From positions 545,494 to 609,493 of the forward strand of contig JAJYNN010000002.1 in the NCBI GenBank assembly GCA_021786315.1: a stretch of 64,000 bases of DNA, read 5' to 3'. Below the pieces are notes generated by a model. That model was not told the DNA's origin, searched no databases, and saw nothing but the letters and a program-made list of their open reading frames with translations. Shown here piece by piece: positions 9,536 to 53,462 of the stretch (within the stretch, counting starts at the first letter, position 1; every line of letters begins with the position of its first letter). Source of the DNA: a bacterium (GTDB lineage Bacteria > Patescibacteriota > Microgenomatia > Daviesbacterales > UBA10151). A program made the position numbers and the translations under genes.

Positions 9536-11317
9536 TTATTTAGCACTGAGATTAATTTTGCGGATGCGGATGTTTTTGGGGGTCACTTCCACCAACTCTG
9601 TATCATCTATATATTCCAAGGCATCTTCCAAAGAAATAACCCGAGGGGCATTAAAGTGTTCCGAAACTCCTTCTCCGGAAGACCGGTGGTTTGTTTGCTG
9701 TTTTTCTTTGCAAACATTAATCCGGATATCATCCAACCGGGAATTTTGCCCAATCACCTGGCCAGCATAAACCGGAACAGACGGACCAATAAAAAGTTCT
9801 CCCCTGTCTTGAGCCCCAATCAAAGCATAGAGCTTACTGATTCCGCTTTCGTGAACCACCAAGGATCCTCTTTCACGGACATAAGAGCTTCCGGTATCTT
9901 TCCTAAATTCCAAGAAGGTTACATTAATAATCCCTAAACCGTGGGTGTCGGTAATAAATTCACTGCGGTAGCCAAAAAGCTCTTTGGTGGAAATAATAAA
10001 TTCCATGGTAACCACTCCGTTTTCAGTGTTCATATCCTGCAAATCCCCATGGCGGGTTCCCATCTTTTGCATAACAACCCCGGAGAAGTTTTCCGGCACT
10101 TCAATCAAAACCCTTTCATAAGGGGTAAAAGTTTGCCCATCAATTACTTTCTCGATTACTTGCGGACGGGAAACTTGGAATTCATAACCCTCCCGGCGCA
10201 TTCTTTCAATAAGAATCGCTAAATGGAGCTCTCCTCTTCCGGAAACAATCCAGGAACCATTGCTCTCCTGAACTTTCAAAGCCACATCAGTTTCCAACTC
10301 TCGGTTCAACCTGTCTTGGATTTGCCTAGCGGTTTTAAATTCCCCCTCTTTTCCGGCAAATGGAGAAGAATTAACGCTAAAGGTCATCTTGACGGTTGGT
10401 TCTTCAATGGATAAAAGTGGTAAAGCTTCAGCATTATTAGGATCAGCAATGGTCTCTCCAATAGTGATTTCCGGAATACCCGAGATGGAGACAATATCCC
10501 CCGCCTGTACTTCGCTTGTTTCTACCCTTTCCAAACCCTGATAAGTCATCAACGAAGTTAAGCGGTATTTTTTCTTTTCCCCGTCACGATTGATATGCAT
10601 CACATCTTGGCCAGCCTTGATTGTTCCGTTGTATATTCTGCCTGTAGCAATCCGGCCTTTAAAGTTGTCTCCGGAAATGGCCGCCACTAACATCTGTAAT
10701 GGTTTGTTAGAATCACCGGACGGAGAGGGAATGTGTTCCAAGATGGCATCAAAAATCGGGGTAATATCTTCCATCTTATCCAGCATTGGCTCCAAACCGG
10801 CTTTACCCAGCTTGCTTGAAGAATAAATAACCGGGAAAAAGGCAGTCTCTTCATCAGCCCCAAGTTCCAAAAACAGGTCAAAGGTTTTATTTAAAACATG
10901 CTCAATCCGGGCATCGGGTTTATCAATCTTGTTGATTACCACAATAATTTTATGGCCTAGCTCCAAGGCTCTCTTTAAAACAAATCTGGTTTGGGGCATA
11001 GGTCCTTCCTTGGCATCCACCAAAAGCAGACAACCATCAGCCATCTTTAATACCCGTTCAACTTCCCCTCCAAAGTCAGCGTGTCCTGGGGTATCAATAA
11101 TATTGATCTTGGTATCTTTCCAAATGATGGAGGCATTCTTGGAAAAAATAGTAATTCCTCTTTCCTTTTCCAAGTCATTGCTATCCATGATGAGGTCAGA
11201 ATCTTCAGTAAATTGTTTACCCAATTTGGTCTGTGATTGACGCAGCAAAGCATCCACCAAAGTAGTTTTACCGTGATCAACGTGAGCAATGATGGCAACA
11301 TTTCTTATATTATTCAT
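9536..11317 (-). CDS. typA: translational GTPase TypA/BipA
   Basis: AHVDHGKTT, ERGITI, DTPGHADF, NKID, GRGELHL, EVTPKNIRIRK. Confidence 0.97.
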   Translation of the reverse strand: MNNIRNVAIIAHVDHGKTTLVDALLRQSQTKLGKQFTEDSDLIMDSNDLEKERGITIFSKNASIIWKDTKINIIDTPGHADFGGEVERVLKMADGCLLLVDAKEGPMPQTRFVLKRALELGHKIIVVINKIDKPDARIEHVLNKTFDLFLELGADEETAFFPVIYSSSKLGKAGLEPMLDKMEDITPIFDAILEHIPSPSGDSNKPLQMLVAAISGDNFKGRIATGRIYNGTIKAGQDVMHINRDGEKKKYRLTSLMTYQGLERVETSEVQAGDIVSISGIPEITIGETIADPNNAEALPLLSIEEPTVKMTFSVNSSPFAGKEGEFKTARQIQDRLNRELETDVALKVQESNGSWIVSGRGELHLAILIERMRREGYEFQVSRPQVIEKVIDGQTFTPYERVLIEVPENFSGVVMQKMGTRHGDLQDMNTENGVVTMEFIISTKELFGYRSEFITDTHGLGIINVTFLEFRKDTGSSYVRERGSLVVHESGISKLYALIGAQDRGELFIGPSVPVYAGQVIGQNSRLDDIRINVCKEKQQTNHRSSGEGVSEHFNAPRVISLEDALEYIDDTELVEVTPKNIRIRKINLSAK

Positions 11318-11517
11318 TTATTAATCCTTTCTGTTGCCATCACAAGATCTTTTTGTGAAACAAAAAGTAGACTTATGATTGCGACATTTCTCCTGTTCTT
11401 CATTTGACATTCCTTTCCCATTAAAAAAACCGCCTGTCCGCGGTGCAATAATTATACCTTTTTAAGCTTCAAATCACAAACATAAAGGTGACGCCTCGTC
11501 CGAAGGCAGGCGCCACC

Positions 11518-11850
11518 TTAAGAAATTACTAGAACATCACCAATTTCAGTTTTAGTTTGTTTTATTGTCCCTTCAGGTAATTCCAAAACCAATCCATATT
11601 TAGGGTTCCAAAAGAAAAACTGATTGGGTTCAATGGATTCTCCGATCTTTACCACCTTATTACTCTTGTCCAAAACCAAGATATCAATATTCTCCTTCAT
11701 CAATAGGGTATGCATCCCCAATCTCGTTTTAAACATCAGAGATCTGGGGTTGGATTTTCTAAGCAGCCCCAAGAATTTATCCAAAACAGAATTACAAAGT
11801 TTTAAATCAGTGGCCAGAATAGTTTTTTTGCTTTGATTGACAACTTCCAT
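11518..11850 (-). CDS. DUF192 family protein
   Basis: HT..M..NIDILVLD, VLELPEG, IGD. Confidence 0.8.
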   Translation of the reverse strand: MEVVNQSKKTILATDLKLCNSVLDKFLGLLRKSNPRSLMFKTRLGMHTLLMKENIDILVLDKSNKVVKIGESIEPNQFFFWNPKYGLVLELPEGTIKQTKTEIGDVLVIS

Positions 11851-11862
11851 ACTTATTCTGTA

Positions 11863-12138
11863 TCAAAACCATTTTTTTGCTTTAGGATTGCGATGAGGAC
11901 AACCAGGCCAACAACACGGCCTGCGCATACCTTCTTTAAGTTCCGAAACCACTCGCTTGACGTGTTCCTCTCTCGTCTCGGGTTTTTTAACAATAGTAAC
12001 CCAACAAATCCACTCATTACGGGCAAGTGGTGTAATACTCTCCCAAGCTTCTAGAGCTTTGGGATCAGAAATGAGAGCTTTTCGCAAATCATCCGGCAAG
12101 TCATGCACTACGCCACCGGGAATATTTTTTGGGGTCAT
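11863..12138 (-). CDS. YdeI/OmpD-associated family protein
   Basis: LPDDLRKAL, ITPLARNEWICW, RRPCCWPGC. Confidence 0.85.
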   Translation of the reverse strand: MTPKNIPGGVVHDLPDDLRKALISDPKALEAWESITPLARNEWICWVTIVKKPETREEHVKRVVSELKEGMRRPCCWPGCPHRNPKAKKWF

Positions 12139-12156: not shown

Positions 12157-12434
12157 TTGTGACCCGGCTAACACTACTTTTTACTTCGTAAAAAGATGTT
12201 GTAATTCTCGCTTCGCTCAAATTATGTGGATTCGAAGGGCCTCTTCCTTAGTCAGACAGAAATAAAAAAGGCGAGGCATAAAACCCCGCTTTTTAATTGT
12301 GACCCGGCTGGGATAGGCACTCCTCGAAGACTCGGAGTTGAACCTCCTTAGCTGTGCCAGATGCGGAGATTCTCGATCCAATAACCGCCTCAAAAATGAA
12401 ATTGCGCTTGGAAAAACCAAACTCAATTTCATTG
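12157..12434 (-). repeat. two tandem structured units, each ending in a copy of the tRNA-Lys 3' end
   Basis: attgtgacccggctgggat at 12296-12314 equals 12431-12449; ttgtgacccggct again at 12157-12169; each unit has a terminator-like stem and hairpin modules. Confidence 0.85.
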
Positions 12435-12506
12435 TGACCCGGCTGGGATTCGAACCCAGGACCAAAAGCTTAAAAGGCTTCTGCTCTACCGCTGAGCTAC
12501 CGGGCC
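12435..12506 (-). tRNA. tRNA-Lys(TTT)
   Basis: Cloverleaf GGCCCGG/CCGGGTC, anticodon loop CTTTTAA, TTCGAAT T-loop. Confidence 0.95.
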
Positions 12507-16702: not shown

Positions 16703-16810
16703 CAACACTATTTTCTCAACCCTACTGGCCTTCAGGATTATTTTTTGTTAAAATTACCACTACGGCGCGTTCGTCATAGTGCGCAAGCGCCAGACGAACT
16801 ACCTTGAAAA

Positions 16811-18406
16811 CTAAATATAGATGGCGCGTTCGTCTAGAGGCCTAGGACACTGGGTTTTCATCCCAGGAATCGCGGGTTCGAATCCCGCACGCGCTACTGA
16901 GAGGGATTGTAAGAAGGTTGTGTTTGATTTCCTCTGCGCGGGTGGGGGCGCGCAGAGCTCTCTAAAGCCCTGATTGTAGTCTACGGAAAGTTGCCGATTC
17001 AATAAAAAGAAGTTCGAGCCGACAGTTTTTGCTCCTATGCTTAAATCGGAGCATGTATTTTTTGCGCGCGCGATTTTTGCGCACGAAAGTGCGCTTCCGA
17101 CCCACTCTCTCATAGGTTCGAGCCAACTCGAACCGTTTTGTCTTATTCTCTCCAAATCTTCCTGAATTTTAAGTTTTTGTTCAAAAACTTCGTTCTTTTT
17201 ACTTTTATAAGTTTCACCATCTATTACCTGATCCAAGAAACTATCAAGTAACAAATTGAGCTTTTTATCTAAAGTTTCCAGCTCGTTTTTTAGGGAGATT
17301 ATATTTTCCTCAATGAACTTTTGCTCCTCAACTTCATCCCGATCCATCCATTTATACCAATCATGAGCCCAACTTTCGGGAATAGACACATCAGAAACAA
17401 TCTTTCTTACTTGTAGTTCTAAATCTTCTTGAGAAATATATTTTTGAGAACAAGGTTTAATTTTCTTAGTGCATCTATAGTAAATAAAGGTTTGTTTATT
17501 ACCATTTTTATATTTTTTAGTATGAGTTTCGGTAGTAATAGCCGCACCGCACTCTCCGCACCTCATCAAACCTCTAAAAGCAAAATCATGGCCATTTTTC
17601 CTTGGTCTTTCAATTCTTTTTATTTCTTGTTGAGCAGAATCAAATAGTTTTTTAGAGATAAATGTTTTATGAGAGCCCTGATAATACTCACCGTTATACT
17701 TTAAAATCCCAATATAAAATCTGTTGGATAGCATTTTCTTTATTTGGTTTATATGTAAAGGTTTTTTGTTTATGGTTGTACTTACCCAACCTCGAGTTAA
17801 CCCTAATTTGTGAAGATAGAGGGATATTTCCTTGTAAGATTTACCTCCCTCGGCAAAAAGTTCAAAGGCCTTTTTAATTGCTAAAGAAGTTTCCGGATCT
17901 ACTTGAACAGTTTTTGTATTCGAGTCGTTTTTATACCCGAAAGGTGCTTTCATTGGCCAAACTCCATTGCGAAGTTTTTGCCTTAGCCCACGTTTTACAT
18001 TTTCTGATAAGTTGTCGACATAATATTTGGATTGGCCAAAGGCAATATTTAGCATAAATTTTCCCTGTGGAGTATTTTCAAACCAGAAGGTAGGGAATTT
18101 AAGGTTTAGAAGATTACCGGTATCCAAGAGGTAAATTATTTGGCCGCCGTCAATTGAGTTACGAGCTAATCTATCGGGATGCCAGGCAATAATACCTTGT
18201 GCCTGTCCTTTCTCGATCTTTTTTATTACCTCTGCGAATTTTTCTCTTCCGGGGAGTTTAGCGGTTTTTGACTCTGTTATAAATTCTTTGATTTCTAAGT
18301 TCTCTCTTTTGGCAAATTCTTGAAGCTCAGCAATTTGAGCCTCAATAGAAAGGACTTGTCTATCCTTCTCATCTGTTGATTTTCGGCAGTATGCTATATA
18401 TTTCAT
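16811..18406 (-). CDS. large serine recombinase/integrase (resolvase + recombinase + Zn ribbon + coiled coil)
   Basis: YIAYCRKST catalytic Ser, DRLARN, APFGY, CGECG...YYRC...PC; C-terminus runs through the att site into antisense tRNA. Confidence 0.95.
   Translation of the reverse strand: MKYIAYCRKSTDEKDRQVLSIEAQIAELQEFAKRENLEIKEFITESKTAKLPGREKFAEVIKKIEKGQAQGIIAWHPDRLARNSIDGGQIIYLLDTGNLLNLKFPTFWFENTPQGKFMLNIAFGQSKYYVDNLSENVKRGLRQKLRNGVWPMKAPFGYKNDSNTKTVQVDPETSLAIKKAFELFAEGGKSYKEISLYLHKLGLTRGWVSTTINKKPLHINQIKKMLSNRFYIGILKYNGEYYQGSHKTFISKKLFDSAQQEIKRIERPRKNGHDFAFRGLMRCGECGAAITTETHTKKYKNGNKQTFIYYRCTKKIKPCSQKYISQEDLELQVRKIVSDVSIPESWAHDWYKWMDRDEVEEQKFIEENIISLKNELETLDKKLNLLLDSFLDQVIDGETYKSKKNEVFEQKLKIQEDLERIRQNGSSWLEPMREWVGSALSCAKIARAKNTCSDLSIGAKTVGSNFFLLNRQLSVDYNQGFRELCAPPPAQRKSNTTFLQSLSVARAGFEPAIPGMKTQCPRPLDERAIYI
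16823..16896 (+). tRNA. tRNA-Glu(TTC), integration target
   Basis: GGCGCGT/ACGCGCT acceptor, loop TTTTCAT, GCGGG-TTCGAAT-CCCGC. Confidence 0.95.
16894..16996. repeat. inverted repeat A, left copy (103 bp)
   Basis: Exact reverse complement of 18490-18592. Confidence 0.97.
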
Positions 18407-18489
18407 GGCAGTTTATCTTTAGGGGAAAAGTTCTTTTAGCGACAGCGTTTCCCAGAAATTTTTGCGTGTCTTCTTACTATCTTTCTTTA

Positions 18490-18703
18490 CGGCAACTTTC
18501 CGTAGACTACAATCAGGGCTTTAGAGAGCTCTGCGCGCCCCCACCCGCGCAGAGGAAATCAAACACAACCTTCTTACAATCCCTCTCAGTAGTACGGTAT
18601 CAACAAATTCGAACCTATTTCAAATCGACGTATGCATCGGTCGGTCGGTAGAAGCCCCTCCGCTTCGCGTCGGGGCCTTCTGATCTTTAAGCTCGGCCTT
18701 CGG
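18490..18703 (-). repeat. internal inverted copy of reconstituted attP (IR-A' + CTAC core + IR-B)
   Basis: 18490-18592 = revcomp of 16894-16996; 18589-18703 = revcomp of 28385-28499; the two overlap at GTAG/CTAC. Confidence 0.95.
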
Positions 18704-18764
18704 TCGAAGCTCTGAAACTGTCGGTTCCGAAAACGCAAAAATTTCAAAGAACTTTTCCAAAAAA

Positions 18765-21700
18765 TTATGCACTAAGTTGTATGTATGGATAATCCTTGTA
18801 AAGATTCTCTGCCTGTTCATATACCTTATCAACCATCAAGTCCACCTCTGCAAATGAAATATTATTCCTTAATAAGACTAACCTCACATCTGCTCTTACT
18901 CGAGCTTTAATAATTTCATGGTTAGTCCAGTCAATTGCTATATCTGCCCTTATAGCATGTATAATTTCTTTCACAATCCTCTTTAGATTACTATCTTTTA
19001 AAGACTTCTTACCCAGTGATAAGGCATCATAAAAAGCTAATTCCTCTACTGTTAATCCAATCTCCTTGCCAACTTCACTTGCTTGTCTAATTTCTCTAGC
19101 CAGTTCTAATAATTTATCTATCACTTTAGATGAATTGATAATATTGTTTTCATATTCCTCAATGATTTCTTCTAATTTATTAAGGAGAGTGTCATACCTT
19201 AAAATATTTGTTCTTCTGCGCATTTTTAATTCATCTTTTAACAGTTTGTTTATTGCCTCAATTGTTAGATTCTTAAATCTAGATTTCTTAATATCTTCCA
19301 GGAATCTTTCATCCAATATAGAAATATCAGGTTCCTCTCTCCCATTTTGAGAAAATATATCTATTACACCCTCAGCGACTATATTTTTTGAGATTAGATC
19401 TTTAATCGCGGTTTCTGTTTCATTACTTATATAGATTGGGTCTACAGTAGTGTTTTTAATGATAATTTTTCTAACTCCTTCGAAAAATTCTAGTTCTTCC
19501 CGAATATTATTTGCCGCTTTATGTGGCATTACTAAAGAGAAAAATTTATATAGTCTGCTGGAAAGGCTTAAGTATTGGTCTTTTTGTGCTGTATTTATAC
19601 CACCAGATACCGGATCCGTTAAAATTCCATTAACCGCTCTTGCAAAAAGTGACGCCAGTTCGCTACTAGGTAACTTATGCCAGTTGGTATATTCAATCCC
19701 TTCAAAAAATTTCTTTACTTTTTTATAGTGTTCTAACATTTTCGCGACCATCTCCTCTATTGGAACCATGGCTTGTTTTTGAACATCCGAAGTGTAGATT
19801 GCTAAAGCTTTCTTTAAGTTATCAGCAACACCAATATAATCAACAATTAACCCACCCTCTTTATCTTTATAGCGTCTGTTAACCCTAGCAATTGCCTGCA
19901 TCAAAGTATGACCTTCAAGAGGTTTATCTAAATAGAGTGTATTTAAATGAGGAACATCAAAGCCTGTAAGCCACATATCACAAACGATAACAATTTTTAA
20001 AGGATCTTCAGGATTTTTGAATCTTTTCTCAATTTCCCTATTATCTAACTCTTCTTGAATTTGTCCCTGAAAATCCTTACTGCCAGAAACAACAACAGCA
20101 ATTTCCGGTGCACCCTTCATTGTTTTGATAATTTCGTACATTCTTGCAGCAATTCTTCTACTCATAGTCACAAGTAATGCCTTTCCTTTATATCTTCTAT
20201 TTATAAAATGAAAAACGACATCATAAGCCACTTTTTGTAATCGATCCTCCGCTCCAATAGCGCTCTCCAAAGTAGCCCATTTATTCCTTAAGACGTCTTT
20301 TGTATCTATTGGATGCTCAGCTAATAATTGATCAAAGTCCAAATCAATGTATTTGTTGAAAACATGTAGAGGGGTTAATCGTCCTTCATAGTAGATTGGC
20401 ACCGTTGTTCCGTCCTCAACTGCTTTATCAATTGGATATTCACTAAATTCCTCACCAAAGACCATTTGTGTATTTCTGTTTTGCAAAGAGATTGGAGTAC
20501 CAGTAATACCCATAAAAGAGGCATTTGGTAAAACATCTCTAACATTGCCTGCAAATGTGGCATATTGCGATCTGTGCGCTTCGTCTGCAATCACGATAAT
20601 ATTTTCTCTTTCCGATAAAGGTTCTCTCGTATCAAACTTCTGAATAGTAGTAAATAGAACCTCGGATCCAGCTCCTTTTAGCTGATTAATTAATCCAGCG
20701 ATACTGCCTGCTTGTTTTACAGTGGGGTAACCTGTTCGCAAGAAAGTTTTATACAGCTGCTGATCCAAATCATTACGGTCTGTTAAAAACAGTATTGTCG
20801 GGCTTTTTAGTTGCTCCGCTCTTTTAGCTTTATTAACATAGAAAACCATAGATAAAGATTTTCCGCTTCCTTGTGTATGCCAAAAAACTCCAATCTTTTT
20901 ATTACTAACGATAGCTTGTAAAGTTCTTCCAATCGCTTTGTTCACGCCAAAATATTGATGATACATCGCCATCTTCTTGGTAAATTTAGAAGCATCTTTC
21001 TCAGCGTCTGCCTCAAAGACAATAAAGTTCTCAATTAGATCAAGTAAATGATTTTTATTAAACATTCCCTTTATCAAAAGTTCTAATTCTGACTTCTCTA
21101 GATTTTTTTCGTTCTCACTCTCTATTCCTTTCCAAACATTAAAAAAGTCGAAGGAAGACGAAATAGTTCCATGCTTCGCCTTCATTAGATCGCTGATAAC
21201 AAGTACCTGGTTATACAAAAATATCTTTGGAATTTCTTTTTTATACAAGTCGTGAATTTGTGAGTATGCGTCGGCAATTGTCACCTTTCCATCAACGGGA
21301 TTTTTTACTTCAAATAATCCCACGGGAATTCCGTTAATAAAAACGACCACGTCTGGAATTCTTATAGAAGATCCTTGAACAGAAAATTGGTTAACTACTA
21401 AAAACTCGTTGTTATCCGGATTTCTATAATCAATAATATTTACGATCTCACCTTTAAGATCATTATTTTTGTCTTTGACTTCTACTCTTATCCCTTCCGT
21501 CAACCACTTAAAAACTTCTTTGTTTCCTAACTCTAAATCCTGATGATCATATTTAGTGATCTTATCTACAACCTCGTTAACTTTTTCATCTGGAATATCT
21601 GGATTTATTCTTTTTAAAGATCTTTTTAGTCGCGTCTCTAGAACAACCTCTCTATAATCACTACGTTCTTGAAAAGTTCCGCCAGGGGAGATATCAGGAC

Positions 21701-21782
21701 CATATGCATGTTCATAACCCAATTCATTGAGCCATTCTAATACTGGTTTTTCTGCTAAATTATTTTCATTAAGTTTTGACAT
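18765..21782 (-). CDS. hsdR: Type I restriction endonuclease subunit R
   Basis: PD..VFINGIP...EVK nuclease, HTQGSGKS, DEAHR, TGT, DMWLTGFDVP, QAIARVNR. Confidence 0.96.
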   Translation of the reverse strand: MSKLNENNLAEKPVLEWLNELGYEHAYGPDISPGGTFQERSDYREVVLETRLKRSLKRINPDIPDEKVNEVVDKITKYDHQDLELGNKEVFKWLTEGIRVEVKDKNNDLKGEIVNIIDYRNPDNNEFLVVNQFSVQGSSIRIPDVVVFINGIPVGLFEVKNPVDGKVTIADAYSQIHDLYKKEIPKIFLYNQVLVISDLMKAKHGTISSSFDFFNVWKGIESENEKNLEKSELELLIKGMFNKNHLLDLIENFIVFEADAEKDASKFTKKMAMYHQYFGVNKAIGRTLQAIVSNKKIGVFWHTQGSGKSLSMVFYVNKAKRAEQLKSPTILFLTDRNDLDQQLYKTFLRTGYPTVKQAGSIAGLINQLKGAGSEVLFTTIQKFDTREPLSERENIIVIADEAHRSQYATFAGNVRDVLPNASFMGITGTPISLQNRNTQMVFGEEFSEYPIDKAVEDGTTVPIYYEGRLTPLHVFNKYIDLDFDQLLAEHPIDTKDVLRNKWATLESAIGAEDRLQKVAYDVVFHFINRRYKGKALLVTMSRRIAARMYEIIKTMKGAPEIAVVVSGSKDFQGQIQEELDNREIEKRFKNPEDPLKIVIVCDMWLTGFDVPHLNTLYLDKPLEGHTLMQAIARVNRRYKDKEGGLIVDYIGVADNLKKALAIYTSDVQKQAMVPIEEMVAKMLEHYKKVKKFFEGIEYTNWHKLPSSELASLFARAVNGILTDPVSGGINTAQKDQYLSLSSRLYKFFSLVMPHKAANNIREELEFFEGVRKIIIKNTTVDPIYISNETETAIKDLISKNIVAEGVIDIFSQNGREEPDISILDERFLEDIKKSRFKNLTIEAINKLLKDELKMRRRTNILRYDTLLNKLEEIIEEYENNIINSSKVIDKLLELAREIRQASEVGKEIGLTVEELAFYDALSLGKKSLKDSNLKRIVKEIIHAIRADIAIDWTNHEIIKARVRADVRLVLLRNNISFAEVDLMVDKVYEQAENLYKDYPYIQLSA

Positions 21783-21783
21783 A

Positions 21784-22602
21784 TTAGTGATCTTCCAATT
21801 GTAATTTTTGTTGAGGTTCTTTATATGACTCTATATCAACTACTTTAATTTTGGGAACCTCATAATCACTATTTCTTATTACTATCCCTCTCAACTGAAC
21901 TTTTTCCATTTCAAGATATTCGTGAAATTTCGTCGTACTCTTTTCTTTATCCAAAGGAGAAACATTTAAGGTGTACCCTTTATAAATAAATCCTAAATCA
22001 TTTAATTTTTTATTTATCCGTGTAATTTCTCCATCTATAACAACTTCCTCTCCGTTTCTAAGTTCCGGTAATATGGGATCTTCTTGTTTATCTACATAAA
22101 ATTGATACTTATTATCGCAAGTAATCTTGAATGACTTATCTCCTATAACGATTTCCGCATGTTCGTTGTATTCGCTAACTGGCCTCGCCATTTTTTCTGC
22201 ACCTTTTCTGAAATCATAACTTCTACATAATTCAAAGACCTTCTTGTCGGAAATGGCGTCTAACAATTCTTTTGTGGGATTCTTCAAGCTATTCGATCCA
22301 AATCTATCGATTATTACAAAGGCTGATACTATTATTGTGGCTACATAACTTATTCGCTCTACGGTTTGCCAGGGGTGCTTCTGAACATATATAAGCTTTG
22401 TTCTAACCGAACCATTTTCAATTGGAAGAACGTATATATTATCGTAAGCCAGCATTCCTATTTTTGCTGCTTCTTTTAAACATGTCTCCAAGCCAATAAT
22501 TGCTTCTCCTAACTCTTTAGCTGGCATTGCACTTTTTTCCGCAGAATACACTAAGAATATTTCCGATGAAGAGGGATCGACTTGGAATAGTTGTTGATTC
22601 AT
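21784..22602 (-). CDS. hypothetical protein embedded in the Type I RM operon
   Basis: 272-aa ORF abutting hsdS and hsdR. Confidence 0.75.
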   Translation of the reverse strand: MNQQLFQVDPSSSEIFLVYSAEKSAMPAKELGEAIIGLETCLKEAAKIGMLAYDNIYVLPIENGSVRTKLIYVQKHPWQTVERISYVATIIVSAFVIIDRFGSNSLKNPTKELLDAISDKKVFELCRSYDFRKGAEKMARPVSEYNEHAEIVIGDKSFKITCDNKYQFYVDKQEDPILPELRNGEEVVIDGEITRINKKLNDLGFIYKGYTLNVSPLDKEKSTTKFHEYLEMEKVQLRGIVIRNSDYEVPKIKVVDIESYKEPQQKLQLEDH

Positions 22603-23745
22603 CTAAATTGTTATTTCTCCTTTCATTAATTTTGGTAAAAGCAAATCACGCAAAGCAGTTAATTTTTGATTTTCCAGCTTTAAACTGATCATAGTTCTGT
22701 AAGTAACATCAAAAATATTTATATTTTTATTGTCAGATATAAAAATATTTTGTTCTTTTAAATGCTCTTTTTTAATATGTCCCATGGTCGTAGCTTTGGC
22801 ACCCGCCTGTTGTTGAAAAAATTTTAGCTTCGACTTAAGAAGAAAATATATAAACCCTTTGGAAAAATCACTTGTTGGAACTACATTAAATATATGCTGG
22901 TTTAATATCGCCTTATCTTTATCCCAGATATACAAATCTACTGTACCAGACCAAGAGAATAGCAAGTCACCGTTTTGGATGTAATATTTATCGTCCACCT
23001 TTTTGTCTATCCATTCAGTATTATCTGAAACTCCTCTGTTTAAGTCAGCAATTTTTATTAGCGGAAGTCCTTTCTTCATTCTGTTTGTAATTTTTCCAAA
23101 AGCCCCGCCATTAATATAATTCGCTATATCCAACAATGAATATTTAGTACCTTCATTAGAGGAGAACCATTTTTTAAAAAATGTCTGGGCCATTTCTTCT
23201 AAAGTTTTTGAAATTTTATTGTTCACTTCAATCTTTTCATCTAATGCAGCTAAAATTCTGGAAATTTTTTTTTGTATAGACAATGGAGGGGTTGGAACTA
23301 AAACATTCTCGAAAGTACCAAGATTAATATTGTCTTGTGCGCTACCGATGGCATAACTTTGAATATTTCTCTTAAGATATTGCAGAGAATATAGAATAAA
23401 ATCTGGATCGCTTTTTTCTTCGTCTGCTAAAAAACCGATTACACTATCAGGGAAACACGCCGGAAAAGTTAGTTTTCCTAAATCTGCAATATTTGCTGCG
23501 ATCGTTATACAAATTGTATTAACGGGCCACATCCTACTTTGTTTTAAACCATTTTCACTGTATGTTTGTGAATATGAAGTTATTCGACCACCTGAGGCTT
23601 TCACATCACCTGTTTGTATAAATGGGTACGGACCACCATACAATATCCTTGCGTCTCTTGGCCGATGTCGAGATCTTCCTCTATTAAGTTCACCTAACTG
23701 AGTTAATTTTTTTAATTGCCAATTATCTGGAATCTGATTTTGCAT
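22603..23745 (-). CDS. hsdS: Type I RM specificity subunit
   Basis: IPDNW, PPLSIQKKI...LDEKIE.N...LEEMAQ, LRDLLLPKLMKGEI; two TRDs. Confidence 0.95.
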   Translation of the reverse strand: MQNQIPDNWQLKKLTQLGELNRGRSRHRPRDARILYGGPYPFIQTGDVKASGGRITSYSQTYSENGLKQSRMWPVNTICITIAANIADLGKLTFPACFPDSVIGFLADEEKSDPDFILYSLQYLKRNIQSYAIGSAQDNINLGTFENVLVPTPPLSIQKKISRILAALDEKIEVNNKISKTLEEMAQTFFKKWFSSNEGTKYSLLDIANYINGGAFGKITNRMKKGLPLIKIADLNRGVSDNTEWIDKKVDDKYYIQNGDLLFSWSGTVDLYIWDKDKAILNQHIFNVVPTSDFSKGFIYFLLKSKLKFFQQQAGAKATTMGHIKKEHLKEQNIFISDNKNINIFDVTYRTMISLKLENQKLTALRDLLLPKLMKGEITI

Positions 23746-23746
23746 A

Positions 23747-25537
23747 TTAATAATTAATCTTTTTTAGATTTTCTAAAATTTCCTTTTCTAATTTTTCAGA
23801 TTTTGTGAAATATTGTTTTAGTTCTGATTCTAATTCTTTCATCTTTTCTTCGAACGGAACTCCATCCTCCTCTTCATCCTCCACTCCAACAAAACGACCC
23901 GGTGTTAAAACATAACCACTTTTTACAATTTCCTCTTTTGTTGTTGCCTTACAAAATCCGGAAACATCTTTATATTCTCCATTTTCGCTCCTCCAAGCCC
24001 TCACAGTATTAGCAATTAGCTGAACTTGTTCTTCATTAAAAGTCACTTGTTTTCGAGAGATTTGAGTAAAATATTTTGAGTCTCGAGCATCAATGAAAAG
24101 AGTTTCTCCTTTTCTGTTTCTGAATCTGCCGGATTCTTTATTTTTTGTGACAAACCATAACGACACTGGAAGGGAAACATTAAAAAATAGTTTTGGAGGA
24201 CAAGCAATTATTACATCAATCAGATCATCCTCAATCATTCTTTTTCTGATTTCACCTTCCTTGCCGGAAACAGCCAACGCTCCATTAGCCATTACAAATC
24301 CAGCTATTCCATTTGGGGTTAAGTGGTTTATAAAATGTTGAATCCACATAAAGTTAGCATTTCCTTTCGGAGGAGTGCCATAAACTAATCTCGGATCTTT
24401 TTCAGAAAGACGATCTGAATCCCATTCTGCATTAAATGGAGGATTAGCCAGGATAAAATCGACTTTAAGTTCTCTGAACTTGTCATCATAGTAAGAATTA
24501 CCAAATTGGATATTTCCAAAAACTCCACGGATAGCAAGATTCATCTTGCAGAGCTTTAAAGTTGTTTGATTACTTTCTTGGCCGAATATGGATATTTTTG
24601 TCGGATCTTTATGGTGCTCTTGCAAGAATTTGCTGGACTGGACAAACATTCCACCAGACCCACAACATGGGTCTAAAACCCTACTGTTTTCATAAGGTTC
24701 AAGAATTTCAACTAAAAGTTTTACTAGCGAACGAGGTGTATAAAATTCTCCTCCTCTTTTACCCTCAGCATCAGCAAACTGTCCCAAGAAATATTCATAG
24801 ACTCTACCAAGTAAATCTTTCTCTCTATCCTCATCATCGTTGAAATCTATCCGGGAAAAAATATTAATGAGTTCTCCTAAGATTTGACTTTCAAGTGGAA
24901 CGCGAACATAACTCTTTGGCAGAACTCCTGTCAGCTGTTCAGGGTTTTCATTTTCTATAGCTTCCATAGCATCGTCGATATACTTCGCTAAATCTGATAA
25001 GGCAGCTTTGCTTCTCAAATATTCCCATCTGGCGATTTCTGGAATATAAAAGATCCCCTCCTTCTTATACATGTCTTTATCTTCCAAAATCATTTCTCGA
25101 GCAGCGGGGTTAGGGATATAGTATTGCTTGTTTTTGGAATCACTCATCCATTTTTGAAGTTTTTCTCTTCTTTGGTAAAAAGAATCAGAAATATACTTAA
25201 GGAAAATAAGACCTAAAACGACATTCTTGTAATCAGAAGAATCAATATTACCCCTAAGTCTATCTGCAGCTGCCCATAGCTCTTTTTCAAAATGAATATC
25301 TGTTTTAGGTTTACTAGCTAAATCCCGAGCTTCCTTTGCTGTAGCTTTTTGAGTTTGGATAATTCTATCTTTAAAATCCTGAGGAAGAGTATTGTACTTT
25401 AGAAGATATTTTTTACCCTCTGTTCGTGTTTCGATTTCTCCAGCATTAATTTTACCTTGGAGTTGCTTTAAAACAGCCTGACGAGATATACCTAATATCC
25501 TGGCGATATCACTAATTGAGATAAAATTTTCATCCAT
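23747..25537 (-). CDS. hsdM: Type I RM N6-adenine methyltransferase with N-terminal HTH
   Basis: LWAAADRLRG, GEFYTP, DPCCGSGG, NPPF; N-term ISISDIARILGISRQAV helix-turn-helix. Confidence 0.95.
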   Translation of the reverse strand: MDENFISISDIARILGISRQAVLKQLQGKINAGEIETRTEGKKYLLKYNTLPQDFKDRIIQTQKATAKEARDLASKPKTDIHFEKELWAAADRLRGNIDSSDYKNVVLGLIFLKYISDSFYQRREKLQKWMSDSKNKQYYIPNPAAREMILEDKDMYKKEGIFYIPEIARWEYLRSKAALSDLAKYIDDAMEAIENENPEQLTGVLPKSYVRVPLESQILGELINIFSRIDFNDDEDREKDLLGRVYEYFLGQFADAEGKRGGEFYTPRSLVKLLVEILEPYENSRVLDPCCGSGGMFVQSSKFLQEHHKDPTKISIFGQESNQTTLKLCKMNLAIRGVFGNIQFGNSYYDDKFRELKVDFILANPPFNAEWDSDRLSEKDPRLVYGTPPKGNANFMWIQHFINHLTPNGIAGFVMANGALAVSGKEGEIRKRMIEDDLIDVIIACPPKLFFNVSLPVSLWFVTKNKESGRFRNRKGETLFIDARDSKYFTQISRKQVTFNEEQVQLIANTVRAWRSENGEYKDVSGFCKATTKEEIVKSGYVLTPGRFVGVEDEEEDGVPFEEKMKELESELKQYFTKSEKLEKEILENLKKINY

Positions 25538-25546
25538 GCCGGAAGC

Positions 25547-25592
25547 AGTATAGTACTAAAAAATAATTCTGTCAAGTTGTCATCGTGACAAC
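25547..25592 (-). promoter_or_regulatory. sigma70 promoter of hsdM with adjacent palindromic operator
   Basis: TTGACA (25575-25570), 17 bp, TATACT (25552-25547); GTTGTCA-N3-TGACAAC at 25576-25592. Confidence 0.75.
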
Positions 25593-25627
25593 CTTAAATT
25601 AGAAATAATTGCGATACAAGAGTTTCT

Positions 25628-26485
25628 TCAGTAACACTTTTTAGTGCTACTACCCTCTAAATAATAAGACTCTTTTTTAGGATCAAACCGATATGTATTC
25701 TTTTCTTCGGTATCACTTCCATGATCTCCACAAGACCAACCTTGCTCAACCTTCCCTTCAGAATTTGGCAGAAAGTTATCGACCCAGTAGAAAGTTTGAT
25801 CTTTGTTGATTATTGGATAGACAACAGCTTTATTATTGGCCTTACTATATCCCAAGACTAAATGTTCAGTATGTCCACAAGCCAAAGTAAAACCATTTAG
25901 GAGAAACTCATAATAATACCCATCGCCGTTTAAATCCTGAAAATTCATCAAGTCCACATCTGTATACTCGAGTTGTTCTACAGAAGGTTCGCTACCTTCC
26001 AATTTCAAATAAGCCGGATCAGCGTTCATTCTGATATTTTGATAAGCTAAACGGATATTATTGCTTGGAGGTAATGGTTTCCCTGTACTTAAATCTACAT
26101 TAGAGCCCGAACCCGGAATCGAAACATCATTAATAAGTTTGTTGTTTTGTATCAGGGCTAAATGATAGTTACCTTCAATCGCTCTTCCCTCTATGCCGGA
26201 AGCACAAGAAGTATAAGCAGACCATCTGCGGGATGGTTCTAATAATTCGTCTGTTTTAGAGTTTAATACATAGAGCACCAAGTACGATTCAGGAGAAAGA
26301 TTGGGAATTTTCTTATATTCTCGGAGTAATGCTTCTTTGGGAATTAAGTTCTTGATAGAACTGTCGCTAATATTTGTTTTATCGGGTTTATTTATGTTTT
26401 TTGTATCAATTTTTAAAGAGGGAAAATAGAAGAAACCAACAATCAACACAAATGGAATGATAAATAATAACTTTTTTCTGCTCAT
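25628..26485 (-). CDS. membrane-anchored extracytoplasmic protein
   Basis: N-terminal TM, four Cys, DLNGDG motif. Confidence 0.75.
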   Translation of the reverse strand: MSRKKLLFIIPFVLIVGFFYFPSLKIDTKNINKPDKTNISDSSIKNLIPKEALLREYKKIPNLSPESYLVLYVLNSKTDELLEPSRRWSAYTSCASGIEGRAIEGNYHLALIQNNKLINDVSIPGSGSNVDLSTGKPLPPSNNIRLAYQNIRMNADPAYLKLEGSEPSVEQLEYTDVDLMNFQDLNGDGYYYEFLLNGFTLACGHTEHLVLGYSKANNKAVVYPIINKDQTFYWVDNFLPNSEGKVEQGWSCGDHGSDTEEKNTYRFDPKKESYYLEGSSTKKCY

Positions 26486-27273
26486 TTATTACTATCAAAA
26501 ATATTTATTTCAGATACATTAATAACATTGGCTTCTCTAGTTAGGTTTCCTTTAACCATTACTTGTTTGTTTATAGAATTGTTGATGGTATTGAGGGCTG
26601 TTTGGGATTTTGGGAGTAGCTTCCATAAAGTTGTATCGGGTAAAGATAAATAGTATTGTCCGTCTTGAGTTTTCTGAATAGTTCCTTGATAGACAATAGC
26701 TCGATGAAGGATAGGGCTTGAGTTAGGGAAAAGAATTCCGGCAGCCGAATTTAGACCAGAGGTATAACCAGTTCCGAAAGAAGCTGCGAGGGCAATCATA
26801 ATAGCTACTGCAGTCATAGGCTTAATTCTAAACTTAAATCCAATATCTATGCCCTCGTTTCCCAAAAGGTGTTTAATCCATTTTTTAAAGTAAGTTACGG
26901 GATTAGTAACTTTCACATCCACCATTGGAGGATCATTATTTTCTGAGTATTTATCATTTTGGGTTACTTGGATTGGAGCAGGGTAAGAGGAATCAGGGTG
27001 ATCAGGGATATTAGGGGAAATTGGAGGATTGGGATTATCAGGGACAGTATAATCACTTTTAATAAAGTGTCCTTGGGCATCTCGCTTTTGGTGTTTTGCT
27101 AATTCACTTTGAACAGGGTCTATTAAGTCAGGAGAAGGATTTGAAGGAATAGGAGGAATGGGGGTATCAGGGAAATTGGGGGGATTCGGGGAAGGAGTTT
27201 GAGCTAATGGTTCGGGTTGAGTTGGTTGTTGAGGGGTAAAGGAATTATTAGGATCAGGCAGTTTGTCATCCAT
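26482..27273 (-). CDS. Pro-rich membrane protein, paralog of 15092..16069
   Basis: Shares long identical blocks with 15092..16069. Confidence 0.8.
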   Translation of the reverse strand: MDDKLPDPNNSFTPQQPTQPEPLAQTPSPNPPNFPDTPIPPIPSNPSPDLIDPVQSELAKHQKRDAQGHFIKSDYTVPDNPNPPISPNIPDHPDSSYPAPIQVTQNDKYSENNDPPMVDVKVTNPVTYFKKWIKHLLGNEGIDIGFKFRIKPMTAVAIMIALAASFGTGYTSGLNSAAGILFPNSSPILHRAIVYQGTIQKTQDGQYYLSLPDTTLWKLLPKSQTALNTINNSINKQVMVKGNLTREANVINVSEINIFDSNK

Positions 27274-27387
27274 AAATCCAGTATATCTACTAGATTAGAA
27301 AGGTGCAACTGCAGCGGAAATATACAAAAAGTTATCCAATATATTGTGTATTGACTCGGCTTTCCATACAAGGTGTAAAATTTAATT

Positions 27388-27720
27388 ACTCTCTGCAGTA
27401 GCGGAGGTAGAAGGGAGGGCCATGAATTTGACCCAACTTTTGTACTCCGTGAGTATCTTTGGTAATTGAAACTAGCAAACGGACAAGCAAGGAGGATCCA
27501 AATAACCTTGCTTACTTAATTGTTCAGGGAAGATTACTGACAACACTCTAGCGGAGGCTCACCTTTGTCTTACCTAAAGGTTAAGTGTTGTCTACCGGAA
27601 AATTGGGAGAGAATAACCAATCAAAGCAAACTGAGACGTCGGTTTGGGGAGATATAGGTATTAGGTACTTTTGTAGGTGAGAGGGCCACTCAGTATTCTC
27701 ACTGGGTGGCCTTTTCTTTA
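27388..27720 (+). ncRNA. candidate structured ncRNA (~330 nt)
   Basis: TTGACT..TAAAAT upstream, several stems, strong terminator at 27684-27719, no long ORF. Confidence 0.4.
27684..27719 (+). terminator. intrinsic terminator
   Basis: ggccactcagt-attctc-actgggtggcc followed by ttttcttt. Confidence 0.85.
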
Positions 27721-28384
27721 TTCTCCTTGCAAACTCTTTTCTCTTCTGTGGCGGTTCCGCCGCCCCCGCCCCTTTGGGATAATAACCGTTCAGGAGGGCA
27801 GCACCTTAGAAGAAATCTTTTTGGAATTAGTAGTAAGTAAAATGGGTGCTGCCCGACAATAGCGAGGGCCGAGAAAGCCAAGTCATATTTTAGAAGAACC
27901 GGCCCGAGCCCTCGGAATTAGTGCGAGAAAGTTTCTCGAGAAACTTTCGAGCGGCATGGATGCAAGTAGGGCTAAAAATTGCGGCGGGGGCGATTGCGGA
28001 CAAACCCCCGCAACGGCAGGAGGTATTAGAAAGAAGAAAAGGGTAGGCGAAAAGTACCGAAGGTAACCTTACCCAACGAACTTTTCGCCGAGTTAGATAC
28101 TACCAATACTAGTTCGTAAGGCAACAATATAGGCGAGGCGCCCCCTAGGGCGACCTCTCGCCCAAAAGCGGGGGTGCCGCTACTACTAATTTGGGTGGGT
28201 GGGTTAGTTCAGGATACAAGATTTACTCTTCTTACCCGTTACCGTAGCGGTAACGGTATCCGTAACGGTCCGTTACGGTGATTAGCTTGTCAAAAACCGC
28301 TAAACTCCCCATTCTTAAATATCTTAATAATTCTTTAAAAATCGCGCGCTTTTCTGTCTCTTAGCAAAAAATACCAGAGCGAGG

Positions 28385-28499
28385 CCGAAGGCCGAGCTTA
28401 AAGATCAGAAGGCCCCGACGCGAAGCGGAGGGGCTTCTACCGACCGACCGATGCATACGTCGATTTGAAATAGGTTCGAATTTGTTGATACCGTACTAC
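28385..28499. repeat. inverted repeat B, right copy (115 bp; element right end)
   Basis: Exact reverse complement of 18589-18703. Confidence 0.97.
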
Positions 28500-28504
28500 A
28501 AAAG

Positions 28505-28540
28505 AAAAAGTCCTCCCTTCGGGGAGGCTTTTTGTTTTTT
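28505..28540 (+). terminator. intrinsic terminator (probable original tRNA-Glu terminator)
   Basis: aaaaagtcctccc-ttcg-gggaggctttttgttttt. Confidence 0.85.
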
Positions 28541-28556
28541 AACTGTGATTAGGCAA

Positions 28557-28657
28557 GAATCTGCGCATCTCGCAGAGCTAAGCAGGTTCGATCAGGCAAA
28601 GCCTGACAACATCTTCGAGCAAAGCGAGAAGTAGTGTTAATCCCCGCACGCGCTACT
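28557..28657 (+). repeat. structured unit ending in a copy of the tRNA-Glu 3' end
   Basis: cccgcacgcgctact (28643-28657) equals 16884-16898; preceded by hairpin modules shared with the Lys/Asp/Thr loci. Confidence 0.85.
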
Positions 28658-29219
28658 TGTTACGATTAAAATGGTGAGTTTTTAGACCCTTAACCTCACC
28701 GTTTCCTTTTTGAGTTTCAGAAGCAGCCCGCCGCAATTTTTCCGAAGAAGCAGGATTCTTCCGGGCTTCATCTTCAAACTTTCTTCCCTGAATATTGATC
28801 TCCTTTTTAACTTCCTCTTTCCGGGCAGAACTGCTTGCCATATTTTCACTATCCTTTACCGCTTCCTGATAATGCTCAATCGCATCATCCAATTTCTTTG
28901 GGTCATTACTTACTTTCAAAACATCATCGCCCCTTCTTTCTATAATTAAGGAGGGGTTATTGGTGGCTTTGGCCACTATATTATCAGCCAATACTTTAAT
29001 CGGATAGAACGTGTCCCCGGGTTCAGCTGCCTGAACTACCCCTCCAAACCCGCCTAGAATTATTAATGCCCCAATCAAACTCAAGACTATCTTTGAATAA
29101 GGAACAGGCGAATTATAAGCATTCTGATCACCCAATTTGGACTCCAACTTTTTCCACTCTTTATCAGGATTATTATCTGAAATATTAATATAGCTTTTTC
29201 TTAATTCCTCTAATTTCAT
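28653..29219 (-). CDS. putative anti-sigma factor (TM + DUF5667-like PGD.FYP.K motif)
   Basis: 4-bp overlap with the ECF sigma gene; single TM; AEPGDTFYPIKV. Confidence 0.7.
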   Translation of the reverse strand: MKLEELRKSYINISDNNPDKEWKKLESKLGDQNAYNSPVPYSKIVLSLIGALIILGGFGGVVQAAEPGDTFYPIKVLADNIVAKATNNPSLIIERRGDDVLKVSNDPKKLDDAIEHYQEAVKDSENMASSSARKEEVKKEINIQGRKFEDEARKNPASSEKLRRAASETQKGNGEVKGLKTHHFNRNK

Positions 29220-47044: not shown

Positions 47045-47211
47045 GCGGGACCGACGGGACTAAGACCACCTTTTTGTTCTTCGAACAAAAACGATCTTGT
47101 CTTCTCGCTTCGCTCGAAGATCGAACCAACTTAGAACTTCGTTCTGCGTATATTTCTCTCCCAAGCAATCAGCCAATAAAAAAGTCCCCATAAAGGGGAC
47201 TACTTTTTTGT
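47045..47211 (-). repeat. structured unit ending in a copy of the tRNA-Asp 3' end
   Basis: gcgggaccgacgggact at 47045-47061 equals 47214-47230; terminator stem 47178-47210 and hairpin modules lie between. Confidence 0.85.
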
Positions 47212-47288
47212 TGGCGGGACCGACGGGACTCGAACCCGCGACCTCTTCCGTGACAGGGAAGCGCTCTAACCAACTGAGCTACGATCCC
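47212..47288 (-). tRNA. tRNA-Asp(GTC)
   Basis: GGGATCG/CGGTCCC, loop CTGTCAC, encoded CCA. Confidence 0.96.
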
Positions 47289-51291: not shown

Positions 51292-51469
51292 CTAGTTCAG
51301 TAGACCATAACCACATTAAAATATCAATCACCTTCCTTGGTTTCCTCCGCCAACTTGAGTTATAATTTGAGCGAAGCGATAATTTCAAGCTCCGCTTATA
51401 ATTTGAGCGAAGCGAGAATTACAGGATCGTTTTGACGCAGTCAAAAGGTAGCCCTATAATACTCACACT

Positions 51470-53312: not shown

Positions 53313-53384
53313 GCCGATGTAGCTCAGTGGCAGAGCAATGCTTTCGTAAAGCAAAGGTCGTGAGTCCGATTCTCACCATCGGCT
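53313..53384 (+). tRNA. tRNA-Thr(CGT)
   Basis: GCCGATG/CATCGGC, loop TTCGTAA, GTGAG-TCCGATT-CTCAC. Confidence 0.92.
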
Positions 53385-53462
53385 CCGAGCAAAGCGAGAA
53401 GACAAAGTGAGAACAACATCTTCGAGCAGAGCGAGAAGTAGTGTTATTCTCACCATCGGCTC
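53385..53462 (+). repeat. structured unit ending in a copy of the tRNA-Thr 3' end
   Basis: attctcaccatcggctc at 53446-53462 equals 53369-53385; preceded by caacatctt-cgagcagagcgag-aagtagtgtt. Confidence 0.85.

Follow-up and report, generated by a model that had tools for sequence, protein, structure and literature searches.

Organization of the mini-elements in the window

We analysed a 64,000-nt stretch of DNA (the window; G000:C3:545494-609493) from a genome, G000, of 780,724 bases in three contigs that is 93.8% complete. The host is an ultra-small groundwater-type bacterium of the CPR (Patescibacteria); the closest relatives of its conserved Xer-like protein (77–79% identity) are labelled Candidatus Daviesbacteria or Microgenomates. 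Several tRNA genes in the window adjoin gene-less inserts of 60–190 bases, which consist of hairpin modules and a spare copy of the gene end.

The gene for tRNA-Glu(TTC) (16823..16897, plus strand) is flanked by such inserts on both sides. The 5' insert (16764..16822, plus strand) is made up of a 12-nt copy of the gene start, a small hairpin and a partial complement. On the 3' side, a separate island (16898..28499) with a serine recombinase and type I restriction-modification genes lies between the tRNA and its mini-element. The large serine recombinase of this island is encoded on the minus strand (16811-18406) in a frame that extends into tRNA-Glu antisense; with this frame included, the island covers 16811-28499. 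A second copy of the recombinase 3' end is found at 18376-18651.

The mini-element itself (plus strand throughout) begins at the first base past the right end of the island with a terminator-like hairpin, T (28500..28540), followed by S' (28541..28556), a loose G/T-rich complement of the tRNA 3' end. Hairpin A (28557..28591) has stems of 8 and 5 bp around a GC/AA 2x2 loop and ends in the T-loop-like GGTTCRA. Hairpin B (28592..28606), which has an A before it, abuts the C of cap C (28607..28639), the commonest type of cap, which reads C-A-R-S-A-T-C, an inner hairpin and G-T-A-G-N-S-Y-T-A. The element is closed by a copy of the tRNA-Glu 3' end (28640..28657) that starts from position 59, has one extra C and lies 140 nt past the right end of the island. 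The order tRNA end, T, S', hairpin A ending in GGTTCRA, B, cap and copy from position 59 is that of the long elements in general.

On the minus strand, tRNA-Lys(TTT) (12434..12506) is followed by two elements. Element 1 (12296..12433) comprises T, S', hairpin A (12372-12338), a short hairpin and end designated D (12337-12315) and a 19-nt copy (12314-12296); element 2 (12157..12295) comprises a terminator, another hairpin, hairpin B (12224-12202), cap C (12201-12169) and a 12–13-nt copy. A gene for a YdeI/OmpD-associated protein (11863-12138, minus strand) lies directly behind element 2. The element of tRNA-Asp(GTC) (47212..47288, minus strand) occupies 47045..47211 on the same strand and contains T, S', hairpin A (47156-47121), B (47120-47100), cap C (47099-47061) and the copy (47060-47045). 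The tRNA-Thr(CGT) element (53370..53462, plus strand) is of a short type without T and hairpin A: its B (53370-53413) is the tRNA's own 3' end plus a complement, and it continues with cap C (53414-53446) and the 3' copy (53447-53462). The 3' copies noticed in a preliminary description of this DNA at Lys, Glu, Asp and Thr are thus all present, at distances behind the gene of 119 and 264 nt (Lys), 151 nt (Asp) and 60 nt (Thr).

Two more units on the plus strand of the window are a B+cap unit at the start of the protein-coding gene typA (11290..11403), with B at 11290-11342, cap C at 11343-11375 and an outer copy at 11376-11403, and a tandem before the -10 box of tRNA-Gly(CCC) (51363..51456), in which a B with the short cap E is followed by a B with cap C. 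The Asp, Gly-promoter and Thr elements are found letter for letter in contigs of a separate study's run (X3) and therefore are not assembly artefacts. The X3 contigs contained no excised circle and no empty allele; in one joint 47064-47214 is skipped, but the short side of this joint is just 21 letters long, and it is probably from another organism.

Copies of tRNA 3' ends in the genome

ARAGORN identified 45 tRNA genes in G000. A cognate 3'-end copy, with at least 11 of 14 letters matching within 260 nt, was found at 19 of them, the Glu copy being counted behind its island. The same definition was satisfied in 19 of 1800 random windows, a chance level of 0.5 per 45 tRNAs. Nearly all the copies begin at T-loop position 59. 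Several outer copies (Pro, Phe, Arg TCT and Gly GCC) retain a CCA that is absent from the gene, and some agree with the genomic flank instead of CCA. Altogether, this streamlined 0.78-Mb genome contains more than 70 module copies, distributed over core operons and roughly half of the tRNA genes.

The modules are mosaic. Terminators are common to different isotypes and genera (the T of the Glu element is the T of a Met element in the relative G356), and both T and the caps interchange between different tRNAs. S' is weakly cognate in the long elements, with 6.97 vs 6.35 of 15 pairs (p=0.035) and 5 of 31 in the top tenth. A precise antisense arm in the long elements was rejected, two tests having been noisy and the subsequent anchored test being the weak one just given. 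Versions bearing cargo exist in G187, of 887 nt behind tRNA-His (L082) and 563 nt behind tRNA-Trp (L085), and both end in a 3' copy from position 59.

Structure and tRNA association of hairpin A

Three copies of hairpin A had been quoted in the preliminary description, and all were confirmed (28557-28591, plus strand; 12372-12338 and 47156-47121, minus strand). Their covariation was borne out in a larger set: among 13 aligned copies, both partners vary in 7 of 13 pairs, and 85.8% of cells pair, compared with 31–43% in slid controls. Neither the pairing score nor the covariation score was reached in any of 500 shuffles, a count that is not a probability because the copies are related. The internal loop, given earlier as GCA/TAA, retains an invariant GC/AA and is a 2x2 loop whose third letters pair as A-T or T-G; the apical triloop is kept as R-N-A rather than strictly as GNA, with ACA in 3 of the 13 copies. 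The Thr element is without hairpin A.

Computed folding energies of whole elements were not better than those of shuffles (z from +0.33 to -1.82), so that the structure rests on covariation. The energy model used is not known to include a dedicated term for sheared G.A mini-loops, and this null result is therefore not decisive.

A covariance-model scan returned 11 matches to hairpin A in G000, all 11 at tRNA loci. There were 22 matches in nine of the 95 family genomes, two of them part of the training set of the model. Of these matches, 21 lie 51–59 nt behind a tRNA; the tRNAs concerned represent eight amino acids. As to the association with cognate 3' duplications that had been proposed as a check, 17 of the 22 matches have a cognate 3' copy. 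No hairpin-A element was seen with a 3' copy and without a downstream B plus end. A match to an existing Rfam family had been named as a reason to abandon the idea of a new motif; only tRNAs reached the Rfam gathering score and nothing came near the threshold at 28440-28700. The elements are, as first described, non-coding, conserved in structure, anchored at the T-loop and located at many different tRNAs.

Caps and the A-junction rule

Complementary R-S/S-Y letters were found in 37 of 40 matches to the cap pattern, even though the search did not require them (the other three were dropped as chance matches, and the search missed the Arg-TCG copy). They occur as GG/CC (20), AG/CT (13) and AC/GT (4). 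The apical loops, mostly GAA (18), GCA (5), GTA (4) and AAA (3), are of the DNA mini-hairpin type described in the accessible text of PMC3201870 and PMC13037366.

Only 14 of the 37 caps C of G000 lie behind tRNA 3' ends. The other 23 have neighbours that include dnaG-rpoD, secD, rplY, gyrB, atpB, typA, def, tig and murJ. The view of a tRNA-specific family therefore holds for hairpin A, which is tRNA-bound, and does not extend to these 23 caps or to the 5'-end and typA versions described below. Of 20 units away from tRNA ends, seven are no more than 15 nt from a predicted start or stop codon, and the typA unit is at 27 nt. The folded strand is on the leading-strand template in 17 of the 23 non-tRNA copies (p=0.035), or in 15 of 21 with tandems merged (p=0.078). 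The short cap E (24 copies) occupies the slot of cap C. Tandem 36-nt repeats of a hairpin plus cap E are found at L006:2780-2900 and at G000 C3:614640-614740. The most frequent non-coding 12-mers of G000 are A/T-rich repeats with a seven-base period, unrelated to the caps.

A single rule describes where these units join their surroundings. Scored in copies with a hairpin of 4 bp or more next to the C of the cap, the base before hairpin B is A in all 31 measurable copies of G000 (6 of the 37 have no detectable B) and in 32 of 33 copies in loci of relatives (9 of 42 have none), that is, in 63 of 64 copies in total compared with a background of 30%. The last base of the cap is also A, or C in a few copies. 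Since an A both precedes B and ends the cap, at either junction an A can lie opposite the invariant C. The observed grammar is therefore an A, the left junction, hairpin B, a cap ending in A and the right junction.

Signs of movement and mirror versions

Two 66-base units lying 79 kb apart (C3:446.8 kb and 525.7 kb) show no difference over 68 columns and have unrelated flanks, and one double unit is present both in the tRNA-Arg(TCT) element and at C1:24.5 kb, before a protein gene. Behind tRNA-Cys, a B+cap unit interrupts a fragment of the tRNA-Ile T-arm directly after A58, and no duplication is present. Such units also split fragments of Leu and Val tRNAs in G213, G187 and G355, and an uninterrupted copy of the T-arm is found behind tRNA-Ile in G187. 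This evidence of movement, from identical copies and from insertion into T-loop fragments, belongs to the B+cap unit and not to hairpin A.

Mirror elements are present at the 5' ends of six tRNAs of G000 (a seventh on the list was a neighbouring tRNA gene and was left out). In several of them the cap is antisense, and more mirror elements were found in relatives. Because 5' elements carry the cap antisense, its orientation follows the duplicated end and not transcription. In the typA unit, B holds the present N-terminal codons and the outer copy, which might give rise to a short upstream frame, corresponds to a different allele of the N-terminus; G355, G356 and G264 have typA units as well. 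Since mirror versions rebuild 5' ends from the opposite strand and the start of typA is rebuilt too, the structure appears to matter at the DNA level. At Thr(GGT) and Arg(GCG), it is the inner copy and not the outer one that pairs with the 5' acceptor strand of the host, and a simple model in which the element brings the inner copy does not explain these two loci.

Distribution among relatives

Comparison of orthologous sites, proposed earlier as a check, showed filled and empty loci in a patchy distribution: 7 of 35 Met loci beside xer have a 3' copy, as do 3 of 65 Ile(TAT) genes beside xer. Cap C was found at the xer start in none of 80 relatives. Loci of 21 family relatives contain 42 hairpin-bearing caps, and only these are counted, because a looser tally of 48 of 96 family genomes includes chance matches. 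The strict hairpin-A pattern was found in 4 of 301 genomes of the class, one of these being a chance match in coding DNA. Outside the family, the cap pattern matched in 7 of 400 genomes of the phylum, with no inner hairpin by eye and at a level not exceeding that of the reversed control. Viral contigs had no match to one strict cap pattern; a metagenome scan yielded a single match, which is identical to the L024 sequence and so is not independent.

A proposed model of insertion as folded single-stranded DNA

On balance, the elements are probably non-autonomous and mobile as folded single-stranded DNA (ssDNA), being cut and joined in trans, most likely by an enzyme of the HUH/Y1 type. Such an enzyme is favoured because inverted ends and target duplications are lacking, a hairpin lies near a fixed right end and the complementarity of the cap letters may be guide-like; a function in ssDNA is suggested by the orientation, which follows the duplicated end, and by loops of the DNA mini-hairpin type. 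In the proposed mechanism, a protein would bind the cap and cut beside the A that faces its invariant C, at the 3' end of the cap and at the foot of whichever hairpin abuts it. As any abutting hairpin would serve, the left end would be set by structure rather than by sequence. B may contain a gene end, in which case a unit with a tRNA or typA end would restore the gene and displace the old end outward, so that in essential genes only end-carrying units would survive. The long tRNA elements (T-S'-A-B-cap) would then be nested products, the T-loop mimic of hairpin A having been targeted by B+cap.

In IS608, the guide pairs with the cleavage site according to a position-by-position rule. The guide/cleavage pairs quoted in the accessible part of PMC5934647 are GAAT with TCAA and AAAG with TTAC. 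By our reading, the RSAT/SYTA letters of the cap may fit guide complementarity of this kind. They covary in 37 of 37 caps, which a plain helix explains equally, and the guide-like pairing is broken in other caps. A more far-reaching version of the model, which we regard as unlikely, is a programmable 66-base DNA-guided system of ssDNA insertion, in which the cap would recruit the enzyme and the adjacent arm would pair with the target. Any chromosomal hairpin coming to lie next to a cap would be taken up, and the system would thereby capture gene ends and exchange them between alleles. Under this version, the cut would fall at the A facing the invariant C, and the ends captured would be tRNA 3' ends, tRNA 5' ends and the typA N-terminus.

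The search for a co-occurring enzyme, which the preliminary description had recommended, gave negative results for both types named there. None of 30 Y1 loci, some of them IS200-like, has a cap within about 1.5 kb, and no integrase was found in or beside the elements, G000 encoding only two Xer-like proteins and the recombinase of one serine recombinase island. The single RAYT gene of G000 is flanked by a different REP, of the AAGG..CCTT type. This RAYT (G000 C3:191090-191776; L003:1190-2060) is of the classical kind, and its own REP matches at 44 places in the genome, which form 29 clusters and are frequently inverted doublets; one REP of this type lies at 11487-11520 of the window, and cap E is seen in or beside some of them. 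Cap E is near RAYT-flanking REPs in 4 of 21 clusters, compared with 0.5 expected (p=0.003); for cap C the figures are 1 of 34 clusters and 0.9 expected. The RAYT and the small GIY-YIG nucleases discussed below are enzyme candidates as leads only.

Other candidates were rejected. The Xer-like gene at C3:93.1 kb, considered as a dedicated enzyme, belongs to the conserved core and has no caps in 80 relatives, and the neighbours of the xer gene at C3:393.9 kb, considered as the site of an integron array, are core genes. A retro-type origin by tRNA-primed reverse transcription was set aside, there being no RVT_1 domain in G000 and some outer copies matching the flank rather than CCA. IS110 and TnpB were absent from all five genomes searched; IS91 Y2 was also found in none of the five, in a search whose positive control was silent too.

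Alternative explanations

Small GIY-YIG genes (Pfam GIY-YIG) are present in 86 of 95 genomes of the family, and an origin of the elements as gene-less remnants of small GIY-YIG cassettes that brought a replacement tRNA end and spread by homing, through cutting by the nuclease and homologous repair, with the hairpins as cassette ends, is conceivable though doubtful. Of 26 parsed GIY-YIG loci (4 of 30 were not parsed), 18 adjoin a tRNA; in three (L229, L231 and L234, judged by eye) a 3' copy with the same position-59 junction stands immediately outside the gene, and the short end of these three loci resembles A-type elements in G187 and G355. However, G000, the genome richest in caps, has no small GIY-YIG gene at 93.8% completeness, and no real cap C lies within 350 nt of the 26 loci, where there are three loose matches without an inner hairpin. 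One locus, L245, has a cap C about 250 nt behind the GIY-YIG gene, but beyond a tRNA. Homing, moreover, cannot carry a unit to 23 unrelated sites, and the nuclease would be without a joining step.

A terminator right behind a tRNA, together with a copy of its 3' end, is the usual scar of tRNA-targeted islands. One example appears in the accessible part of PMC3119063. The 3' copies could accordingly be ordinary att scars of integrases whose attP carried the terminator, with REP-like B+cap units later hitting the T-loops, so that only the combination would be out of the ordinary, a view that we hold to be somewhat less probable than the GIY-YIG one. It would accommodate the cargo-bearing versions behind tRNA-His and tRNA-Trp in G187, the outer copies with a CCA that their genes lack and the uninterrupted T-arm copy behind tRNA-Ile in G187. 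From independent integrases, however, one would not expect a single hairpin A at a fixed distance of 51–59 nt behind tRNAs for eight amino acids in nine genomes, in addition to 11 loci here; the elements have no integrase in or beside them, and the 5'-end and typA versions are not att scars.

It is highly improbable that the host keeps the elements as RNA structures that act in termination, in the processing or protection of tRNA ends, or in the control of translation at start codons. Such a role would suit T, which is plausible as an intrinsic terminator, the strong covariation and the proximity of some units to start and stop codons. Against it, the cap is in sense orientation in 3' elements but antisense in 5' elements and at the majority of start-codon sites, the triloops are of the DNA type, the element is absent from 28 of 35 orthologous Met loci and most of each element lies behind the terminator.

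Comparison with known mobile elements

Insertion as folded ssDNA, the reading that we favour, invites comparison with REPs. In GTAG and CGTC REPs, the tetranucleotide GTAG/GTGG (or CGTC) stands at the 5' foot of the palindrome, according to the accessible text of PMC3733652, PMC6006769 and PMC8266576. Our elements resemble REPs, BIMEs and REPINs in being short, intergenic, imperfect hairpins in many copies, arranged as module mosaics with a conserved bulge and one folded strand; the copy numbers, 37 caps C, 24 caps E and 11 hairpins A, are those of multi-copy extragenic hairpins. In contrast to REPs, the GTAG of cap C lies 3' of the inner hairpin and hairpin A has no GTAG; TnpA-REP cleaves C|T or C|A, whereas the junctions here adjoin A; no RAYT gene is flanked by these modules; and the units here carry and restore gene ends. 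CGTC REPs, too, are without a known transposase (PMC3733652).

PATEs and IS200-IS605 elements, as presented in the accessible parts of PMC3119063 and PMC5934647, share with the elements the absence of terminal inverted repeats and of target duplication, near-terminal palindromes and sizes down to ~50–70 nt; the complementarity at the right end of the elements may also be of their guide type. Unlike PATEs, the elements have no conserved left end and no fixed target tetra- or pentanucleotide, the left flank sharing only its last A, and no related full IS was found at the 30 Y1 loci, nor TnpB in the five genomes. IS608 and ISDra2 prefer the lagging-strand template (PMC6006769, accessible part); the strand bias here is the opposite one, towards the leading template, and is weakly significant. 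The elements differ from MITEs, as defined in the accessible text of PMC3184786, in lacking terminal inverted repeats and a fixed target duplication. They are thus REP/PATE-like in kind, and yet fail to match these classes in the position of GTAG, in a cognate transposase and in a conserved left end.

With tRNA-targeted integrative elements they have in common that the gene end is restored, the old end displaced and a terminator placed beside the tRNA; they differ in their length (60–190 nt), which leaves no room for an integrase or other coding sequence, in modules common to many isotypes and in their mirror 5' and protein-gene versions. Integron attC sites delimit cassettes near IntI and function as folded ssDNA in which the stem covaries, some bases are extrahelical and the terminal hairpin is variable. 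The elements share these features of the folded strand, but they lie inside core operons rather than between cassettes, and there is no IntI: both tyrosine recombinases of G000 score far below the IntI cut-off. GIY-YIG tRNA cassettes also duplicate the tRNA end, and some in this family share the position-59 junction, but the elements have no nuclease gene between the duplicated ends, nor is there one anywhere in G000.

No description of the family came up in full-text literature searches, which did not extend to subscription papers and supplements, in agreement with its first reading as undescribed. New here are a single junction rule for the copies at tRNA 3' ends, at tRNA 5' ends, at typA and between genes, the counts of covariation and the tests of candidate enzymes. 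If the elements move as proposed, they would extend ssDNA mobility of the REP/PATE type to elements able to persist in essential genes because they rebuild gene ends, and would provide a test case for repeats that lack a known transposase, a question left open for CGTC REPs (PMC3733652). A junction defined by structure could also serve as a minimal programmable insertion tool. In CPR genomes, such elements mislead programs that call islands and att sites.

Additional observations on tRNA genes

G023 and G187, which belong to one genus, have different alleles of the Cys, Thr GGT, Ser CGA and Arg CCT tRNAs (L036-L095), which suggests fast replacement of tRNA genes. No tmRNA was found in G000. 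A ~150-nt stretch behind tRNA-Ile(GAT) (L005:1617-1770; G000 C3:137617-137770) has a 7-bp acceptor-like closing stem and is preceded by a T-arm-like hairpin, with no ARAGORN call there; it may be a piece of tmRNA or another tRNA-like RNA. A tRNA-Arg gene with a predicted intron of 1477 nt is located at L007 (G000 C3:226190-227760).
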